DNA from: an uncultured Gemmatimonadaceae bacterium
GTDB taxonomy: Bacteria; Gemmatimonadota; Gemmatimonadetes; Gemmatimonadales; Gemmatimonadaceae
Assembly (NCBI GenBank): GCA_963817955.1
Contig: CAWFQK010000004.1
Coordinates: 1,600,001-1,664,000 of the forward strand
Direction of reading: 5' to 3'
DNA length: 64,000 nucleotides
The notes beneath the pieces are model-generated. The model saw only the letters and a list, made by a program, of their open reading frames with translations, was not told the origin of the DNA and searched no databases. A program made the translations under genes and the position numbers. Positions 10,875 to 30,342 of this stretch are shown piece after piece. How positions within the stretch are numbered: position 1 is the stretch's first letter; each line of letters begins with the position of its first letter.

Positions 10875-12452
10875 CTATGTGTCTCGTGTCTCGTGTCTCG
10901 TGTCTCGTGTCTCGTGTCCCGAGTCTGGTGTCCCGAGTCTCGTTGCTGCACCGATCGCAAGCACGGCGCTGACGACGGCGCCCGCGAGCGCTGCAGCACG
11001 GAGCCCGCCCGTAAACGCGCCCTGGGCCTGCAGCAGCAACTCTGTTCCTTGCGCGCTGGGTAGATGGCGCGCCGCCTCGCGAGCGCCGCCAATGCTCTCT
11101 CTCGCCAGTCGGGCAATGTCCCCCGGCAGCCCCGACGGAAGCACGGCGAGACGGTGATTGTAAATCGCCGTGCTGATGCTTCCAAACACGGCAACACCCA
11201 ACGCAATACCAAAGTCTCCGCTCGCCTCGGACAGCGCGGCCGCCGATCCGGCCTTCTCGGGCGGCGCGGATCCGACGACGAGATCCTGACTGAACACCAC
11301 CATTGGACCAATGCCAAAAAAAACGAGGATGGCGGCAGCCACGAGCAGCCTCACCGCTCCAGTGCCGGTCACCTGGGCAAGGAGCAGGTAGCCGGCAGCC
11401 GAGATCCAGAGGCCAACGCTCACGATCCACCGCGGATGCAGCACGCGCGTGACGAATGGTGCGATGATGCAGCCCACCACCATCGCGATCGGCGCCGGCA
11501 GCATCGCCCAGCCAGCCTTCAGGGGCGACAGCCCCTCGACGATCTGGAGGTGCTCGCTCAACAGCAACAGGATACCACTCTGCGCCGCCAAGCCGAACAT
11601 CAGAATGAGCAGCGCGGCACTGAACGCCGGAACGCGAAAGAGCCGCAGGTCGATCAGAGGACTGGCAAGTACTCGTTGCCGTTTCACGAACACCACGCCG
11701 CATGCGGCGGCGAAGACGACGGCGGGAAAGGTCACGACCGTCACGCCGTCTCTCGCGAGTGACTTCACCGCGTAGACGAACGGCAGGATGGCGGCCAGTG
11801 ACAGGGCCACGCTCGCCGCGTCGAGCGGTGCGGTGGTTGCATCGCGAAACTCGGGGAGGAAGAACGGTCCGGTGGCAAGCAGCAACAGCATGACCGGCAC
11901 GCCCATCAGAAAGAGTGCGCCCCACCGGAAATGTTCGAGGAGCACCCCGCCGACGATCGGGCCGATGGTGGCTCCAACCATGAAACAGGCCGTCCACAGC
12001 GCGATGGCCGCCGCTCGTTCGCCGGCATCGCGGAACATGTTGCTGATCAGTGCGAGTGTGGACGGCATCAACGTCGCGCCGGCCAGACCCATGAGGGCAC
12101 GTGCGGCCACCAGCATCGCGACGCTCGTCGAGTATGCTGCGCAGATCGACGCGAGGCCGAATGCCGCCGCGCCAAGGAGCAGCAGCTTCCGCCGCCCAAT
12201 GCGATCGCCGAGCGTGCCCATCGTCACGAGGAACCCGGCAGTGACGAATCCGTATATGTCGGTGATCCACAGTTGCTCGGTGCTCGTGGCGCCCAGATCG
12301 GCGCTCAGACGCGGCAGCGCCAGATAGAGAACGCTCAGGTCGAGGGCAAGCAGGATGGTCGGCAGGCTCAAGACCGCCAAGCCGATCCAGGCTCGCTTGC
12401 CGGCCCTCTCGGGCACTGCCGAGCCTATCGCGTCATTTGCTGGATGATGCAA
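10875..12452 (-). CDS. MFS transporter, DHA2 (QacA/EmrB-like, 14 TM)
   Basis: LDLSVLYLALP, WITDIYG and GTLGDRIGRRKLL motifs. Confidence 0.93.
   Translation of the reverse strand: MHHPANDAIGSAVPERAGKRAWIGLAVLSLPTILLALDLSVLYLALPRLSADLGATSTEQLWITDIYGFVTAGFLVTMGTLGDRIGRRKLLLLGAAAFGLASICAAYSTSVAMLVAARALMGLAGATLMPSTLALISNMFRDAGERAAAIALWTACFMVGATIGPIVGGVLLEHFRWGALFLMGVPVMLLLLATGPFFLPEFRDATTAPLDAASVALSLAAILPFVYAVKSLARDGVTVVTFPAVVFAAACGVVFVKRQRVLASPLIDLRLFRVPAFSAALLILMFGLAAQSGILLLLSEHLQIVEGLSPLKAGWAMLPAPIAMVVGCIIAPFVTRVLHPRWIVSVGLWISAAGYLLLAQVTGTGAVRLLVAAAILVFFGIGPMVVFSQDLVVGSAPPEKAGSAAALSEASGDFGIALGVAVFGSISTAIYNHRLAVLPSGLPGDIARLARESIGGAREAARHLPSAQGTELLLQAQGAFTGGLRAAALAGAVVSAVLAIGAATRLGTPDSGHETRDTRHETRDT
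10879..10941. repeat. Heptamer tract (GTGTCTC/GTGTCCC, 9 units) inside the 3' end of the MFS gene
   Basis: Five exact GTGTCTC units followed by variants; translates on the minus strand as HETRDTRHETRDT. Confidence 0.95.
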
Positions 12453-14839: not shown

Positions 14840-16567
14840 ATGAACGCCAGTTCTCTTCGCCATCTCACGCTGTACGTCACAGTATCGCTCGCCGGCGCGA
14901 CCGTCTCGCCCGACGCGCGGGCGCAATCCGTTCCGGCACTGGCGTCGTGCAACGGGCGCACCATCGATTCGCTCATCATCGACCCAGGTCGGCCACCGTT
15001 CGCCGGCAGCGCCCGCAAATGGCAAACGATTGCGCGGGCGTTTGGCTTGCACCACGCGACCACTCGGGCCGATGTCATTCGAACGTATCTGCTGTTCAGC
15101 CAGGGCGATGTCTGCTCTGCCGCTCGCGTTGCCGAGTCGGTCCGCGTCCTCCGCAGCCTGCCATTTCTGGCCTGGGCCACCGCCGCGACTCGATCGGATG
15201 CAGCCGGTGGCGTCGTCATCGACATCCATACCACGGACGAAATTCCCGTGCTCGTCTCGGGTCGCCTCCAGCACGGTGTTCCTTCCGCGCTCTCGCTCGG
15301 AAATGAAAACGTCGGCGGCCGCGGGCTCCGTCTCATCGCCGGTGGCGAACGCGGCCGCAGCCGTGCCTACCGCGGCAGCGTCAGAGTCGAAGTCGCGGAA
15401 TCCGCTCCGTTCGACCAACCGATCCTGACGCGTTTTCAAGCCGAGCGTGATCCGCTCGGGAGTCACGCCGAGATCGAACTGTCGCGCCTCTTTCTATCAG
15501 ACTTTCAGCGTGGTGCCTGGCACGCGAGCTTTCGGAACGGCGACGACTTCCCGATCATCCTCCGTCCCGTTGGCGACGACGAGGCCATCGAGGTACATGA
15601 GCGGCAATGGTCGGTCGGCGGCGTCTTTCGGTCGAGGCTCGGTCCGACCCTGGCACTCTGGGGCCCGGTGGCACTCGGCTCGACGCTCAGGCCCGCATCG
15701 CGCGTCCTCATCGTGTCGGACTCCGGCGCCGTCTCCTTCAACGATTCGTCGCTCGTCGGCCGCCTCGAGGCCGCTCACGCCGTTCGTCTCGGCGGAATGG
15801 TTGGATTACGCCGCGTTCGCTACATCACGCGTACCGGACTCGACGCATTGTTCGCACCCCAGGACATAATGATCGGCTGGCAGGTCGGCGGCGTGGCAGC
15901 GCCGGGAGCCGGCACGAGGCGCGATCTGCTGCTCGCCAACAGCATCTATCTGGGCGCCGCTTCGGCCAAGGCAGTGATCGTCGGGGATCTCGAAGCAGAG
16001 GCGAGCCGCGACTTCGCGGCGGGATCGCATCAATCAACCATCGCCAACGCACTGGTCGTCGCCCATTTCACGCCGACGCCGCGCCTCACGATCGGAGTCC
16101 AGGACAATTTTTCGAGCCTCGAACACGCCCAATTGCCGACGCAGCTTTCACTCTCCGATCCCGACGGCGGCGCACGCGGATATCTCGGATCGTCCATTGC
16201 CGGTGGCCGGCGGAACGTGGTGCGAACCGAAATCAGATGGGCTCACCCTCGCGCGCTCCGTCAAACCGATCTCGGATTCGCCCTGTTCGCCGATGCAGCA
16301 AGAATATGGGCCGGCGACGTGCCATATGGCGTCGACGCGGCTCGTCAGAGTATTGGAATCAGCCTGCTCGGGGCGTACCCAACGCAATCGAAACGATTGT
16401 ACCGGCTCGATTTCGCCATGCCGATTCAACGTGACCAGGGAAGAGGACTCGAGATTCGGTTCACGAGCGGGGATCCGACGATCGGGATCGCGAGGGAGCC
16501 AGGGGATGTTGCGCAAGGGAGGAGGGCGCCGGTAGCGGGGGGGTTGTTTGCTTGGCCTGGAAGATGA
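14840..16567 (+). CDS. Outer-membrane protein, Omp85/BamA-TamA-like (POTRA plus beta-barrel)
   Basis: Signal peptide; POTRA-like TRADVIRTYLLFSQGD...ESVRVLRSLPF; barrel motifs GARGY, FADAARIW and YRLDFAMP. Confidence 0.7.
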   Translation: MNASSLRHLTLYVTVSLAGATVSPDARAQSVPALASCNGRTIDSLIIDPGRPPFAGSARKWQTIARAFGLHHATTRADVIRTYLLFSQGDVCSAARVAESVRVLRSLPFLAWATAATRSDAAGGVVIDIHTTDEIPVLVSGRLQHGVPSALSLGNENVGGRGLRLIAGGERGRSRAYRGSVRVEVAESAPFDQPILTRFQAERDPLGSHAEIELSRLFLSDFQRGAWHASFRNGDDFPIILRPVGDDEAIEVHERQWSVGGVFRSRLGPTLALWGPVALGSTLRPASRVLIVSDSGAVSFNDSSLVGRLEAAHAVRLGGMVGLRRVRYITRTGLDALFAPQDIMIGWQVGGVAAPGAGTRRDLLLANSIYLGAASAKAVIVGDLEAEASRDFAAGSHQSTIANALVVAHFTPTPRLTIGVQDNFSSLEHAQLPTQLSLSDPDGGARGYLGSSIAGGRRNVVRTEIRWAHPRALRQTDLGFALFADAARIWAGDVPYGVDAARQSIGISLLGAYPTQSKRLYRLDFAMPIQRDQGRGLEIRFTSGDPTIGIAREPGDVAQGRRAPVAGGLFAWPGR

Positions 16568-16677
16568 ACGGCGCGAACGGCTGACGGCGCTGACTCCCTG
16601 ACGGCGCTGACTCCCTAACTGCGCTGACTCCCTAACTGCGCTGACTCCCTAACTGCGCTGACTCCCTAACGGCGGCT
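16565..16677 (+). repeat. Left inverted-repeat arm: terminal ACGGCGCGAACGGC plus five 17-bp GCGCTGACTCCCT(A/G)AC(T/G) units
   Basis: Units start at 16587, 16604, 16621, 16638 and 16655. Confidence 0.95.
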
Positions 16678-16685
16678 TAGCACAA

Positions 16686-16762
16686 GGCGGACTTACGGCG
16701 GACTTACGACGGACTTACGGCGGACTTACGGCGGACTTACGGCGGACTTACGGCGGACTTAC
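16686..16762 (+). repeat. Tandem 11-mer GGCGGACTTAC x7
   Basis: Seven consecutive units, one with a single substitution. Confidence 0.95.
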
Positions 16763-16834
16763 GGCGGCGGGCGATTGGGAGGGATTGAAGGGTTATGATT
16801 GCGCGTTCTCGTCCGAAATGCTCCAGCGTTGCGC

Positions 16835-17200
16835 ATGACGCTACACCGCAACCTCGCCGTCCTCGATGCAGCGGATCTCGTAGCTGGTGAGATCATGCAG
16901 CTGATCGCGTCCACTCCCCGGCTGCTGCACGTCGAGCAGCTCCGAGATTCCGCGCAATCCATCGGGGCGAATATCTCGGAAGGTTTCGGTCGCGGGCCCG
17001 GCGCAGACCGGGCGCGGTTCCTCCGAACCTCGCGTGCATCCGCTGAAGAGACCATCCGACACCTCCGCGGGAACCTCAACGCCAGCAGGATCCCGGAGAC
17101 AACGTACTGGCGAATGCACCATCGATTGGTAACGATCTCACGAATGCTCGACTCGCTGCTCCGCCACCCCGAATCCAAGGCTCGCAGCGATCGCTTCTAG
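16835..17200 (+). CDS. Four-helix-bundle protein (23S rRNA intervening-sequence protein / Avd-like family)
   Basis: 121 aa. QLRDSAQSIGANISEGFGR...RFLRTSRASAEE matches the family pattern QLxRAxxSIxxNIAEGxGR...FLxxARGSxxE. Confidence 0.88.
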   Translation: MTLHRNLAVLDAADLVAGEIMQLIASTPRLLHVEQLRDSAQSIGANISEGFGRGPGADRARFLRTSRASAEETIRHLRGNLNASRIPETTYWRMHHRLVTISRMLDSLLRHPESKARSDRF

Positions 17201-17204
17201 AGAG

Positions 17205-17283
17205 TCAGCCGCCGATCGCCGCCTCCAGCCGCCGTCAGCCGCCGTCAGCCGCCGTCAGCCGCCGTCAGCCGCCGTCAGCCGCC
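17205..17283 (+). repeat. Tandem 10-mer GCCGTCAGCC (5 exact units plus degenerate ones)
   Basis: Exact at 17231-17280; the reverse complement (GGCGGCTGAC) resembles the upstream GGCGGACTTAC unit. Confidence 0.93.
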
Positions 17284-17388
17284 GTCAGGGAGTCAGCGTA
17301 GTCAGGGAGTCAGCGTAGTCAGGGAGTTGGCGCAGTTAGGGAGTCAGCGCCGTCAGGGAGTCAGCGCAGTTAGCCGTTCGCGCCGTCA
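17276..17388 (-). repeat. Right inverted-repeat arm: five 17-bp units plus terminal GCCGTTCGCGCCGTCA
   Basis: Units start at 17284, 17301, 17318, 17335 and 17352; reverse complement of 16565-16677 with about 9 mismatches by hand count. Confidence 0.95.
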
Positions 17389-18219
17389 AAGATCCCTCTT
17401 GTAAAAGGACTTTCCCACCACCCCCATCACACAGATGAGATACCCCACCGCATACCACACCGCCGTCCCACTCGGAATCGAGACATTCGCGAACGGTGAA
17501 AACGACAATGACCCGGTAAGTGGCGTCTGCATCTCGTATGCGGCGCGGCGCCACAGGGCCTCACTCGGCAGGATGAGGCTCGACACAACGCCGAGAGTCA
17601 CGATGTGCGCGCTCTGGGAAAAACCGCTCACCTGTTCGAGCCAGCCACCCATGAATGCGACCCCCTGAAGACCGAGCGCCAGTACCCCGCTCGTCAGGGT
17701 CGAGAACCACGTACCGAGCATGAAGGTCACGCCCAATACCAGCACACACTCGCCGGCAATCAGGAGAAAACCGCGTACCGGGTGCTCGGGCAGAATTCCC
17801 GTGGCGCCATACCCGACAGCTATGGTACCGAGGAACGTGAGCGCCACGTAAACGACGATCATGGCGACGAAACCGAGGTACTTGCCGAGCACAATCTGCC
17901 ATCGCGCGATGGGCTTGGTGGCGATCGCCTGGATCGTCCCCGAGCTGATCTCGCCGGCGATGGTATCGATCGACGTGAGAATCGTCATGACGACCGCGAG
18001 CAGGTCGCAGGTATAGAGGCCCACCATCAGCATCCCGCTCTCCACCTGATAGCGCACGAACGGCGACATCGACCGTCCCTGGAACTCGGCGACCTGCAGG
18101 CGAAGGGCAACCGTGAATACGGCGAGCAACAGCAGGGCGGCAATGAGCGCGGTCCACAGAATCTTCCGCCGCGCGGCTTCGCGCAATGTGATCCCGGCCA
18201 TGATCAAGGTGGCATTCAT
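17386..18219 (-). CDS. ABC-2-type transporter permease
   Basis: EISSGTIQAIATKPIARWQIVLGKYLG motif, multiple TM segments, C-terminal FYKRDL. Confidence 0.9.
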   Translation of the reverse strand: MNATLIMAGITLREAARRKILWTALIAALLLLAVFTVALRLQVAEFQGRSMSPFVRYQVESGMLMVGLYTCDLLAVVMTILTSIDTIAGEISSGTIQAIATKPIARWQIVLGKYLGFVAMIVVYVALTFLGTIAVGYGATGILPEHPVRGFLLIAGECVLVLGVTFMLGTWFSTLTSGVLALGLQGVAFMGGWLEQVSGFSQSAHIVTLGVVSSLILPSEALWRRAAYEMQTPLTGSLSFSPFANVSIPSGTAVWYAVGYLICVMGVVGKSFYKRDL

Positions 18220-19139
18220 AGTCCCTTATCCTCGCCGACGAGTGAGACGAACATGTCCTCGAGCGACACGCGCTGCGGCGTCACGCGAAAGATGTCAGTC
18301 CCAGCGCCCACGAGATGGCGCATGATATCGGGCAGCACAGTGTCCGACGGGACGCTGAAGGTGAGTTGGCCGGCGTCGAATCGCGCCGCGGTGGCCCACT
18401 GCGCCAAGCCGCCAACCGCACCGTCCGAGACGTTCGCTGCGTGCACGGTGACCTGGAGTCCTTCGATGGCGGTCCCGAGGGACTGCGTCGCCACGACTTC
18501 ACCTGCCTTGATGAAGGCGACGCGGTCGCAGGTGACCTCGATCTCGCTGAGCAGATGCGAGTTCAGAAAGACCGTGGCACCCCGATCGCGCTGCGCACGA
18601 ATGACGTCGCGCACCATGCGTCGACCCATTGGATCGAGGCCAGACGTGGGCTCGTCGAGGAAGATGAGGTCGGGATCATGAATCAACGCCTGGGCCAAGC
18701 CAAGTCGCTGCAGCATGCCTTTGGAGAACCCGCGAATTCGCCGCTGCGCATGTGCGCTGATCCCTACCATCTCCAGCGCTTCCGGCACGCGGGCGCGGAG
18801 GCTGGCAGCCGACATCCCGGCCAAGCGACCGTGCAGCGACAACAACTCCGACGCCGTGAGCCAATCGTAGAACCGAAAATCCTCGGGCAGGAACCCGATC
18901 CTCCGCCGGACGGGCACGTCGCCCGCCGGTTTTCCGAGGACCATGGCCTGGCCGCTGGACGGCCGAACCAGTCCGAGCAGCATCTTGATTGATGTACTCT
19001 TGCCCGCGCCGTTGGGGCCGAGGAATCCGAATATCTCGCCGCGTTCGACCGTCAGCGACAGGCCTCGCACGGCCGCGTGCGCGCCAAAGAGCTTCCGAAG
19101 GTCGTGCGTTTCGATGGCGGGTCCAGAGGAGGAAGTCAT
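18216..19139 (-). CDS. ABC transporter ATP-binding protein
   Basis: Walker A GPNGAGKS, signature FSKGM, Walker B LDEPTSGLD. Start set at ATG 19139. Confidence 0.95.
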   Translation of the reverse strand: MTSSSGPAIETHDLRKLFGAHAAVRGLSLTVERGEIFGFLGPNGAGKSTSIKMLLGLVRPSSGQAMVLGKPAGDVPVRRRIGFLPEDFRFYDWLTASELLSLHGRLAGMSAASLRARVPEALEMVGISAHAQRRIRGFSKGMLQRLGLAQALIHDPDLIFLDEPTSGLDPMGRRMVRDVIRAQRDRGATVFLNSHLLSEIEVTCDRVAFIKAGEVVATQSLGTAIEGLQVTVHAANVSDGAVGGLAQWATAARFDAGQLTFSVPSDTVLPDIMRHLVGAGTDIFRVTPQRVSLEDMFVSLVGEDKGL

Positions 19140-19156
19140 CACAGGAGCCTCATAAC

Positions 19157-20086
19157 TCAGCGCGCCATGCGCGCGAGCGCGATGCCGTCCGCCGAGCTGC
19201 CGTAGCCGGTGAGGGTATAGACAATGCCGTCGGCGGCCCACAGCAGCGCGTACGTGGGTCCACGGCGCCCGCCAGAGTTGACGAGCATGGCCGGGACGCC
19301 GGCGACATGCAGGGTGTCGTACGAGCGCAGATTGCGAGGCAATGACATGCTGAGCGCCTTCGACGCGTCGAACAGCCGCTGGAAGTCGCCGCCCTGTTTG
19401 GGGCTCATGCCGGCGAGCTCCAGCGCGATTCCGACGAGCTGCTCGGCATCGAGCGGCGGTGGAAAGATGACCGTGGTCTGCGGGGTCTCCATGAGCACCA
19501 CGCAGTTGCCGTTGTCCGTGGTCGGTGGGGGCGGCCCCTGGAGCTGGTTCTGCAGCGTGTTGGCGATTGGTGCCGGGCAATTGCCATACTGAACGCGGAC
19601 CGCGCGATGGGTGGTCAGGGTGACCGTTGCCCCTTCCACCGATGCGGGTTGCGCGAGCGTGGGCCGCCCCGCCTGTCGAAGATTCGTCTGAAGCTGCTCG
19701 GCAATCACCCTGATCTGATCGGCGTGCGACCCAATGACACTGAACGAGGGTGGATCGGTGCGACCGGCGAACAGACGCGGAGCGAATTCGGCGGCACGGC
19801 GCGCGGAGTCGGCCGACGGCACAGCAAAGTCGGGTTCATCGAGCGAGACCACCGTCGTATCGGTGAGCAGACCGGCGACGAGCTGCTGGAGTTGCCGGTT
19901 GCCGCTCGTGCCCGCCGCCGGAGCGGTCGCTGCGATCGGCTTGGGTTTGGCGATGCGGAGCGACGCAAAGAAGCGCGGTCCCAGGGCGCCACCCGGCATT
20001 GGCGCTGCACACAGCGCCGCGATGCCAACGACAGCGACGATCGGCACGAGCCACCTGTTGTGTTGCACTGCTGATTCGTCGGACAC
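19157..20086 (-). CDS. Membrane-anchored hypothetical protein, probably co-transcribed with the ABC genes
   Basis: N-terminal TM segment, 309 aa, ends 17 bp upstream of the ABC ATPase. Confidence 0.65.
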   Translation of the reverse strand: MSDESAVQHNRWLVPIVAVVGIAALCAAPMPGGALGPRFFASLRIAKPKPIAATAPAAGTSGNRQLQQLVAGLLTDTTVVSLDEPDFAVPSADSARRAAEFAPRLFAGRTDPPSFSVIGSHADQIRVIAEQLQTNLRQAGRPTLAQPASVEGATVTLTTHRAVRVQYGNCPAPIANTLQNQLQGPPPPTTDNGNCVVLMETPQTTVIFPPPLDAEQLVGIALELAGMSPKQGGDFQRLFDASKALSMSLPRNLRSYDTLHVAGVPAMLVNSGGRRGPTYALLWAADGIVYTLTGYGSSADGIALARMAR

Positions 20087-22709: not shown

Positions 22710-22863
22710 GGGGGGCAGGGGCGGGGGGGCGTGCGACGTCTCCCTCTCATTAGACGCAGAGCTGGGGTGGGACGTTGGTGGACGGAGCGAGGTCTACTTC
22801 ATGGATTGGGCTCCGGGTGTTGACCGGCTGGATGTCGCTGGCTGCTCCGTACCGGTCGGCCCA

Positions 22864-22963
22864 CCGGTCGGCGAGGTTCGAGTTTCCAGTTGTGAGTTGT
22901 GCGTTGTGAGTGTCCCGTGTCCCGTGTCCCGTGTCCCGTGTCCCGTGTCTTGTGTCTTGTGTC
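22864..22963. repeat. Dispersed 48-bp element (copy 2) plus heptamer tract (GTGTCCC)5(GTGTCTT)2
   Basis: 47/48 identical to 1253-1300; the tract ends 7 bp from the stop codon of the serine hydrolase gene. Confidence 0.95.
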
Positions 22964-28752: not shown

Positions 28753-30303
28753 CTAAGTTCGGCCCCAGCCGAGGCTCCGCAAGGCCCGCCATTCGCCGGC
28801 GCGAAAGAACTGGGTCAAGGCGAGAATGGTCGGTAGGGCAGCAATGAGCACCAGCTTCAGACTCAACCCCGCGACGCTCAGGGGCCGCACGCCGACTGCT
28901 TCCGCCCAGCGGTCAATCGCGAACAGGAGCGCCGTGACGATCGCGAGGTGAACGAGCCGTCGCCACTCGAACGGCACACGAAAGACGCGGCCCGACTGCC
29001 AGGCGCCGAGTGCCGCCATCAACGCATAGGATGCGGGTGTCGCCCACGCGACGCCAACCATGCCCCAGCGCCGCGAGGCCACGATGCACGTCGCCACATT
29101 GAGCGCCGCTCCAGCGCCGGCGATCCACGGCAAGACGCTGGTTCGTCGTTCGACATACAGTCCCGAAGTCACGACGGTATAGATGCCGGTAAAGACATAC
29201 CCCAGCAGAATTACCGGAACGATGGGCAATCCGAGCCAGTACGCCGGCTTCACGTACTGGTGGACTGCCGGAATGGCCACGAGCACCGGCAGCAGGACTG
29301 AGATGATCAGGAACCCACTTGCGCAGACCAGCATGAGCGCGGTCAGGACTCTCGAGAAGAGCTGCGGTGCGTCCGGCTCGCGCGCATGCTGGAGGGCAAA
29401 CGGCGTCCACGCCAGGCGGAACATCTGCACGACCAACAGCATCGCCACACCAAGCTTGTAGTTGAAGCTGTAGATGCCGACCACATCCTTGGAACCCATC
29501 CCGTACACGCTGTGGGCGATGGCCTCGGGCAGGTAGTTGAGCACGAGCCGATCGCCGTTCTCGACGATCATGACGCCGAGCATCGCAGGCATGATCGGCA
29601 GCGCGTATCCCCAGAGTTCGCGCCACGCCGCGCCACGGAGGAGGGCGGGCCGGAATAGCCGAGCAATGTCGGCCATCACGAGCAGCAAGACGGCAATGTT
29701 TGCCCCGATGTTCGTCAGGAATATCGCAGACACGCCGGCGTTGAAGTGGCCAATCAGGACGATGTTGCCGGCAACGCTCAACCCCACGAACGCCAGTCGC
29801 AGGCTGGCGTATCGCCATGCCCGTCCGGCCATGCGCAGGTATGCAAACGGAACCGCGAGCAGCGCGTCCGAATACACAATGATCATCATGTAGCGGAACG
29901 ACGTACTGTCCAGCCTCGCCGCCGTGGCGAGCCACGGCGCTGCCGCGAAGCATGCCGCGGTGACCAGCGCACCGATCGCGAGAACGATGGCGAATGACTC
30001 GGTGAATGCGCGCTCGCCGGCTTTGGTGTTTCCCTGAGTCGCGGCGGCGTTGCGCATGTACGCCACGTCCATCCCGAGGTAGAACGCGATCGAGATGATG
30101 GGGATGTACGAATACACGACGCTCTGCACGCCGTTCTGTGCTGCATCAAAATGATGGGCGTAATACGGCTGCAGCAGGTAACTGAGCAGTCGCCCGACGA
30201 TGGAGCTCAGCCCATAGACGAGAGACTCGGAACCGAGCCGCATGAGTTTTCCGGCAAAGCGGTTCGAGCCCGGAGCCACCACGGTGACGAGTGGGGAGTT
30301 CAA
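28753..30303 (-). CDS. Polysaccharide/oligosaccharide flippase (Wzx/MOP superfamily); start may be as late as 30243
   Basis: ESLVYGLSSIVGRLLSYLLQPYY, DRLVL and VGIYSFNYKLG motifs; about 14 TM segments. Confidence 0.85.
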   Translation of the reverse strand: MNSPLVTVVAPGSNRFAGKLMRLGSESLVYGLSSIVGRLLSYLLQPYYAHHFDAAQNGVQSVVYSYIPIISIAFYLGMDVAYMRNAAATQGNTKAGERAFTESFAIVLAIGALVTAACFAAAPWLATAARLDSTSFRYMMIIVYSDALLAVPFAYLRMAGRAWRYASLRLAFVGLSVAGNIVLIGHFNAGVSAIFLTNIGANIAVLLLVMADIARLFRPALLRGAAWRELWGYALPIMPAMLGVMIVENGDRLVLNYLPEAIAHSVYGMGSKDVVGIYSFNYKLGVAMLLVVQMFRLAWTPFALQHAREPDAPQLFSRVLTALMLVCASGFLIISVLLPVLVAIPAVHQYVKPAYWLGLPIVPVILLGYVFTGIYTVVTSGLYVERRTSVLPWIAGAGAALNVATCIVASRRWGMVGVAWATPASYALMAALGAWQSGRVFRVPFEWRRLVHLAIVTALLFAIDRWAEAVGVRPLSVAGLSLKLVLIAALPTILALTQFFRAGEWRALRSLGWGRT

Positions 30304-30310
30304 GCGCGGA

Positions 30311-30342
30311 TAGGGAGCCAGCGCAGTTTAGGGAGTCAGCGC
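30311..30342 (-). repeat. Two units of the 17-bp AGGGAGTCAGCGC family
   Basis: TAGGGAGCCAGCGCAGTTTAGGGAGTCAGCGC, the same unit as in 17284-17368. Confidence 0.85.

Follow-up and report, generated by a model that had tools for sequence, protein, structure and literature searches.

The closest described counterparts of the element examined here are the open reading frame (ORF)-bearing intervening sequences (IVSs) of rRNA found in Coxiella burnetii, in Leptospira, and as inserts in candidate phyla radiation (CPR) bacteria. Passages of one report (PMC4990558) describe the Coxiella IVS as carrying a PF05635-family ORF in a stem cut by RNase III, with tandem GACAGAT heptamers and an ORF in decay; they propose a mobile origin, with the ORF as a component of mobility. 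Parts of other reports place the same family in 16S and 23S rRNA inserts of CPR bacteria (10.1101/2024.02.27.582315) and inside cas loci (PMC3936711), and relate it to Avd, a four-helix-bundle ring that binds nucleic acid and works with a reverse transcriptase (PMC10053308). The family member XCC0516 forms a homopentameric ring, according to a passage of PMC4990558, and the portions of three reports that treat the family term it functionally uncharacterized (PMC10053308, PMC3936711, and 10.1101/2024.02.27.582315). Here, we describe a PF05635 gene enclosed by mirrored arrays of tandem repeats at positions 16565 to 17388 of a 64,000-nucleotide stretch of DNA from an uncultured Gemmatimonadaceae bacterium (assembly GCA_963817955.1, contig CAWFQK010000004.1, positions 1,600,001 to 1,664,000). 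This whole stretch is referred to below as the window. The observation on which the initial annotation was built is confirmed, and its interpretation as an IVS-like mobile or processed RNA unit is partly supported. We favor, with a probability of about 0.6, the reading that the locus is a selfish DNA cassette, capable of insertion and built like the ORF-bearing rRNA IVSs, with the PF05635 gene in the loop of a hairpin.

As in those IVSs, a protein of this family is encoded in the loop of an inverted-repeat stem, short tandem repeats are adjacent, and the ORF is often decaying. In contrast to the IVSs, the cassette has a long stem with an ORF in its loop but is not inserted in a 23S or 16S rRNA helix; it lies between two protein genes, and no Rfam match was obtained in 16000-18000 at an E value of ≤1. 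Its arms are 200 nt long and composed of 17-, 11-, and 10-mers, its termini are stop codons, and the arms belong to a dispersed genomic family that includes gene-less copies. The proposal of a discrete IVS-like cassette outside rRNA is upheld, and the dispersed arms, the gene-less hairpins, and a decayed gene remnant also speak for the initial interpretation. No description of PF05635 hairpin packaging outside rRNA was found in a full-text literature search, most subscription papers being outside its reach.

Other known elements resemble the cassette in part. In eukaryotic foldback transposons, short tandem repeats make up the long terminal inverted repeats, the loops vary, and few copies are coding; the likeness is an analogy of form, as foldback elements are eukaryotic and their coding capacity is unrelated. 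Miniature inverted-repeat transposable elements (MITEs) and the hairpin-forming doublets of repetitive extragenic palindromic (REP) sequences known as REPINs, with their REP-associated tyrosine transposases (RAYTs), combine terminal inverted repeats with many short gene-less copies, lie between genes or at gene 3' ends, expand in lineage-specific bursts, and have one or a few gene-bearing copies in each family (for REPINs, passages of PMC3116915). Unlike these, the cassette gene is no known transposase, a search of the 94% complete genome gave no PF01797 match, and the arms are tandem arrays rather than unique sequence. Avd of diversity-generating retroelements shares a related four-helix-bundle fold and ring assembly (parts of PMC10053308). 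The cassette, however, lacks a neighboring reverse transcriptase as well as template and variable repeats, and Avd itself is not matched by sequence.

The layout described in the initial annotation (terminal motif, 17-mers, 11-mers, gene, 10-mers, inverted 17-mers, and inverted terminus) was borne out by repeat detection and is far from chance (Table 1). Array coordinates, periods, and copy numbers were obtained with Tandem Repeats Finder, which bounded the 17-mer arrays at 16584-16674 (left) and 17274-17370 (right). The inverted repeat, estimated by hand at ∼110 bp with ∼9 mismatches, was computed as 110 nt at 92% complementarity (16568-16677 with 17277-17386; ∼9 mismatches, 599-nt spacer) and reaches 167 nt at 85% in a gapped comparison. 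The right 10-mers are in part complementary to the left 11-mers through a GGCGG/CCGCC core. Folding of 16565-17388, which had been suggested as a check, predicted one nearly continuous stem at -500.5 kcal/mol, compared with -347.7 ± 7.0 kcal/mol for 20 shuffled sequences (z = -22). A core, AC[GT]GCG, is common to all repeat types of the cassette. The left arm contains it 13 times, spaced by 16 to 17 nt and then by 11 nt. Its complement is found at 10 positions in the right arm and at one in the gene, which lacks the core itself. Within the cassette, no promoter-like site was detected by a sigma-70 scan, a method that may be unsuited to this organism. The initial annotation saw neither a transposase nor a target-site duplication. 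No transposase is present inside the cassette. A 4- to 5-nt direct repeat, AAGA(T), abuts both of its ends, with none seen at the other family copies read.

The assignment of the enclosed gene to the four-helix-bundle family is secure by profile search, with 58.2 bits against PF05635 (cutoff, 33.8) and 59.9 bits against TIGR02436 (cutoff, 24), both above the curated cutoffs. The ORF has no internal stop and encodes 133 amino acids from TTG at 16799; the 121-residue product given originally corresponds to a start at ATG 16838. Searched against the PDB, the family profile retrieved XCC0516 (2gsc; E = 1.2e-35) and a Bacteroides protein (2rld; E = 5.2e-16), with five chains per entry. These direct sequence relatives are known as structures, and the passages covered give neither a function nor a hairpin context for them. 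Avd, by comparison, had no sequence match to the family profile at an E value of ≤0.001. A Cas11e match in a PADLOC scan was weak (E = 0.005) and was disregarded. Of the conserved polar motif of the family, Q..R...S...N..EG (quoted from a passage of PMC3936711), the window protein retains Q34, S41, N45, E48, and G49. The near-invariant R column is occupied by D37, with R36 beside it. Because most members of the clade of related proteins designated c5-like, defined below, have R or K one column before the near-invariant R position, the shifted residue looks like a trait of that clade, which also has its own set of conserved residues.

Hairpin packaging proved to be the usual context of PF05635 genes in this genome and well beyond it. 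The genome (4.53 Mb in 9 contigs, 64% G+C, 94% complete) encodes five PF05635 genes, four of which lie inside long inverted repeats. These measure 136 nt at 93% and 121 nt at 96% in two cassettes and 167 nt at 85% in the cassette of the window; the fourth is a rearranged copy. The same kind of flanks that had been predicted for paralogs was therefore present at three of the four other copies. The arms of the four cassettes belong to three unrelated dispersed families, found at 148, 22, and 21 places. Two cassettes on different contigs (C4:1553k and C1:472k) have 590 nt in common at 94% in unrelated flanks; between their genes there are 16 differences over 393 nt, of which 8 are synonymous and 8 nonsynonymous. 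Upstream of the latter cassette, C1:471815-472300 contains stacked CAGTTGT and GGTCAGT heptamers, a piece of an arm family designated A, and seven copies of a 24-mer (ACAAACCGGGCTGATAGGTGAGCA). The arms thus appear to be modular.

Among 30 relatives, 28 of which have the family, an inverted repeat encloses 20 of 28 testable loci (within ±700 nt); the control for this genome and its relatives gave 8 of 1,000 random positions of this genome. A wider sample was taken from 592 hits to one peptide pattern, of which the 80 best were retained; it covered Acidobacteriota, Planctomycetota, Pseudomonadota, Chloroflexota, Bacteroidota, and others. In this sample, an inverted repeat within ±400 nt encloses 50 of 67 testable loci, compared with 1 of 132 control windows shifted by 1,100 nt in the same loci. 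Tandem arrays flank the gene at 88 of 98 loci, on both sides in 63, and the period in the general sample is 7 for 122 of the 151 best arrays. Hairpin plus gene is thus the usual packaging of PF05635 genes in many phyla.

Within the window genome, the cassette is a discrete unit whose arms form a lineage-specific dispersed family. A BLAST search of this genome with the cassette as the query placed arm-like arrays at 12 further places on contigs C1 and C4. The 13 elements of this 17-mer family have the terminus ACGGCGCGAACNGC in common and show individual variants. Several copies are complete gene-less hairpins with loops of 63 to 107 nt and the same terminus, and others are solo arms. At C1:251915-252404, a 185-nt loop holds a 167-nt fragment that is 86% identical to the interior of the window gene; the intact gene occurs in the window copy only. 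Because the arms also exist as gene-less hairpins, solo arms, and a decayed-gene copy, the gene-bearing copy stands to the others as an autonomous element does to its MITEs. The double 17-mer pattern (two adjacent units, ≤2 mismatches) occurs 51 times in this genome and in none of 200 other genomes of the order, only 2 of which are congeners; its exact form had no match in a metagenome contig collection. In a congener, a near-identical unit, CGCTGACTTCCCAACGG, surrounds a 57%-identical gene that is interrupted by a stop.

Copies of this family lie at the 3' ends of genes, as the initial annotation had anticipated, and their terminal TGA is often the stop codon of the neighbor. At 7 of 20 outer termini, the terminal TGA or TAA is the stop of a long ORF (frame of ≥100 codons, third-position G+C of ≥0.70), at 1 more the two lie 2 nt apart, and at a further 4 such a stop is found no more than 20 nt away; the same test was passed by 292 of 5,000 random TGAC sites. 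Arrays in the family comprise 3 to 10 units, with 5 the commonest number (9 of 20 multiunit arrays; a two-unit row at C1:219522 is omitted from this count). An idea that five 17-mers mirror a five-subunit ring was ruled out by that range. The right arm of an element was the best partner of its own left arm in four of seven hairpins of the 17-mer family (family C) and in one of eight family-B hairpins. In the gene-remnant copy, the arms are 99% alike, rare unit variants included. These comparisons are only suggestive of a concerted evolution of the two arms.

The same family shows larger arrangements as well. Three gene-less hairpins lie within 7 kb at C1:214908-222048, bracketing ∼6.4 kb with two long ORFs. 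The first and third of them (C1:214908-215259 and 221649-222048) have the same loop in opposite orientation, with a 100% match over 123 nt between the left arm of one and the right arm of the other. At C1:245861-248819, two solo arrays stand inverted to each other and 2.8 kb apart with several ORFs between; together they may form a larger composite unit.

The repeat period follows the clade of the protein. Of 150 other genomes from the family-level group, 13 have c5-like proteins, which are 34 to 57% identical to the window protein. Inverted arrays with a period of 12 to 25, mostly 16 to 17, accompany 18 of 21 c5-like loci (window included); the remaining three loci represent the most distant or partial matches. 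Most of these long-period arrays have a GGCGC or ACGGCG-like core. The 18 loci form one group on a 59-sequence protein tree (SH-aLRT support, 93), on which the long-period label requires 3 changes compared with 16.8 in shuffles (0 of 500 shuffles as low). Subclades of the group have common periods (14, 16, and 12 to 13). The window gene therefore belongs to a clade in whose cassettes the usual heptamers are replaced by 12- to 17-nt repeats that have an ACGGCG-like core. The period and the core persist although the remainder of the unit varies, which argues for a constraint. The suggestion that the repeats are binding sites for the encoded protein gains indirect support from the clade-tracked period and the common AC[GT]GCG core, although descent of the cassette as a whole fits equally well.

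At the window locus, both cassette ends coincide with stop codons. The TGA of the left gene (16565-16567) is the first triplet of the cassette, and the minus-strand stop of the permease gene is the last. The initial placement of the arm ends at both TGA codons is therefore correct, while the Omp85 label of the left neighbor is weak (19.9 bits against a cutoff of 24). The five closest orthologs of the left gene (44 to 52% identity) all have the same C-terminal end, ...WP(A/G/V)(R/G)*, and all eight permease orthologs found in the 30 relatives (66 to 78% identity) end in ...DL* at the same residue. As orthologs of both neighbors end at the same residues, the cassette spans exactly from stop to stop and leaves both neighbor proteins at their usual length.

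Table 1. Features of the cassette and of its neighbors, in window coordinates
Feature	Position	Strand	Remarks
Whole cassette	16565-17388		824 bp, stop codon to stop codon; one gene between inverted tandem-repeat arms
Left terminal motif TGAACGGCGCGAACGGC (family-wide terminus ACGGCGCGAACNGC)	16565-16581	+	Same terminus at other family copies
Left array, about five 17-mers, T(G/A)AC(G/T)GCGCTGACTCCC	16582-16674	+	Period 17, 5.4 copies, 95% matches
Left inner array, 11-mer GGCGGACTTAC, 7.5 copies	16686-16767	+	97% matches
Four-helix-bundle gene, PF05635/TIGR02436	16799-17200	+	Intact; long-period clade
Right inner array, 10-mer GTCAGCCGCC, 8.5 copies	17204-17288	+	89% matches
Right array, about five 17-mers, reverse complement of left array	17274-17372	+	Period 17, 5.6 copies, 85% matches
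Right terminal motif GCCGTTCGCGCCGTCA, reverse complement of left motif	17373-17388	+	Last three bases are the permease stop (minus strand)
Left neighbor, outer-membrane-protein-like, 575 aa	14840-16567	+	PF01103, 19.9 bits, under the cutoff of 24; weak Omp85
Right neighbor, ABC-2 family permease, 277 aa, convergent	17386-18219	-	48 bits
ABC ATPase gene, upstream of permease gene	18216-19580	-	

Further repeats occur elsewhere in the window. An isolated 40-nt stretch (30303-30342) is 90% like the 17-mer array, and an isolated 48-nt piece of a family A arm lies at 1253-1300. A gene-less hairpin of another family is present at 921-1199, with GCAGAGAACT in 3.5 copies (921-956) and its complement CTGCAGTTCTC in 4.6 copies (1149-1199); its 27-nt arms are 89% complementary and 193 nt apart, and the unit is among the high-copy 20-mers of the genome. 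Heptamer arrays of GTGTCTC (9.3 copies, 10879-10943) and GTGTCCC (5.7 copies, 22910-22949) have no inverted partner within 300 nt; the latter adjoins a full ∼115-nt family A arm unit at 22802-22913.

Several observations weigh against a selfish DNA cassette. The searches revealed no enzyme of movement: a Y1/RAYT transposase (PF01797) was not found in this 94% complete genome, the PF05635 protein is no known recombinase or transposase, and the only reverse transcriptase of the genome (C4:729500-735500, ∼880 kb away) is retron-like (NF038233, 135 bits, under the cutoff). No target-site duplication is consistent across the copies read. An empty site could not be recovered because the Omp85-permease junction is conserved in none of the 30 congeners or the order sample. 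The permease orthologs of eight relatives have other downstream neighbors, with no Omp85 gene and no cassette, and the Omp85 orthologs (≤52% identity) never adjoin a permease gene; a metagenome scan with the C-terminal half of the Omp85 protein also found no relative of the locus. In 6 of 23 c5-like matches of other genomes, in-frame stops interrupt the gene, which is therefore often dispensable. On the longest branch of the tree is the fifth PF05635 gene of this genome (C2:824631-824945), around which neither an inverted repeat nor arrays occur. Dispersed array families that lack a four-helix-bundle gene in this genome (GTGTCTC, GAGAACTGCA, and others), which account for 573 of 767 high-copy 20-mers absent from the four cassettes, imply that arms may not need the PF05635 protein. 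The sample from many phyla is biased to one subfamily, having been drawn with a single peptide pattern. Finally, the long-period state is essentially of one origin; thus, coinheritance and recognition explain the clade-period association equally well.

Some of these points would be expected if the arms were host repeats of the REP or bacterial interspersed mosaic element (BIME) type, serving as bidirectional terminators or mRNA-stabilizing hairpins at 3' ends and spreading by themselves, with the gene an unrelated passenger in the loop. The many gene-less copies and solo arms at gene ends, the array families without such a gene, the stem that ends both convergent mRNAs, and the frequent pseudogenization in relatives all suit this explanation. 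It does not say why PF05635, and not other families, occupies the loops. Three unrelated arm families in a single genome each enclose a PF05635 gene symmetrically, the layout recurs across phyla far above the control (50/67 versus 1/132), and the repeat period follows the protein clade. Also weighing against it is the inverted pair of solo arrays at C1:245861 and C1:248717, which enclose several ORFs. We regard a passenger gene as rather improbable, though it is the likeliest of the alternatives.

An element acting at the RNA level, with a stem that is selected for and processed by RNase III and with spread via an RNA intermediate in which the Avd-like protein aids a reverse transcriptase, seems unlikely. 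The stem is very stable, the homologous Coxiella IVS is excised by RNase III (passage of PMC4990558), and the structural relative Avd acts with a reverse transcriptase (passage of PMC10053308). A transcript stem, however, is trivial, as any DNA inverted repeat gives one. Selection on an RNA stem predicts G-U over A-C mismatches on the gene strand, and the best arm alignments of 76 loci held 74 sense-strand G-U transitions against 93 antisense (binomial P = 0.16), with transversions (n = 161) as many as transitions. Nothing in these counts indicates wobble-tolerant selection on an RNA stem, and they lend no support to the folded-transcript reading of the initial annotation. The symmetry of the arms seems to belong to the DNA itself or to some process by which both arms are renewed. 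There is, moreover, no reverse transcriptase, template, or variable repeat in the cassette or its neighbors, and Avd had no sequence match at an E value of ≤0.001. The distant retron-like enzyme adjoins an IS256-family transposase and an SNF2-like helicase fragment, a locus that may be a defense island. An invertible segment, in which recombination between the 110- to 167-nt inverted arms flips the gene as an on/off switch, is very improbable: inverted repeats do flank the gene, and the C1 copies at 214908-215259 and 221649-222048 bear the same loop in opposite orientations, but no recombinase is nearby, the arms are a dispersed family, and those two loops, being at different sites, represent separate insertions and not a flip. 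A chance arrangement or assembly artifact deserves almost no credence. The draft comprises nine contigs. Among public sequencing runs, no RNA run contains the stretch, and the sole DNA run with part of it (a 0.07 share of sampled words) yielded short contigs only: one matches 16271-16421 with full identity, two 47-nt pieces map to the left 17-mer array, and no contig crosses a junction. Against an artifact stand the fold statistic (z = -22), the 13 loci with individual variants, and related cassettes in 13 other genomes.

If the locus is indeed a selfish DNA cassette, the unit would spread as DNA by a mechanism that uses its palindromic arms. The ring-forming protein would bind the repeated ACGGCG-core units of its own arms and would serve the propagation, maintenance, or expression of the element. 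The long stem would make insertion harmless because each convergent mRNA would simply end in a stable hairpin, and by analogy with the rRNA IVSs, RNase III may cut that stem.

More tentatively, and as a possibility that we still consider doubtful, PF05635 proteins could act as sequence-specific partners to hairpin cassettes that make up a very large class, as yet undescribed. Binding to the units of their own clade (heptamers, or 12- to 17-mers with an ACGGCG core) would drive copying, insertion, or retention, with no classical transposase. In that case, the class would take in, as special cases or as remnants, the rRNA IVSs together with several unexplained families of short tandem repeats between genes and of palindromes that supply stop codons.

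The very widespread PF05635/TIGR02436 family, for which structures are solved and no function is known, gains a testable context from the matched repeat arrays. In the sampled loci, its genes are usually packaged by a matched pair of arrays that are also dispersed without the gene. The long-period clade offers a natural specificity-swap contrast with the heptamer cassettes of the same genome. This context would link the 30-year-old puzzle of ORF-bearing rRNA IVSs to ordinary intergenic repeats, and it may also explain many of the tandem repeats and palindromes annotated at gene ends, including those that supply stop codons.

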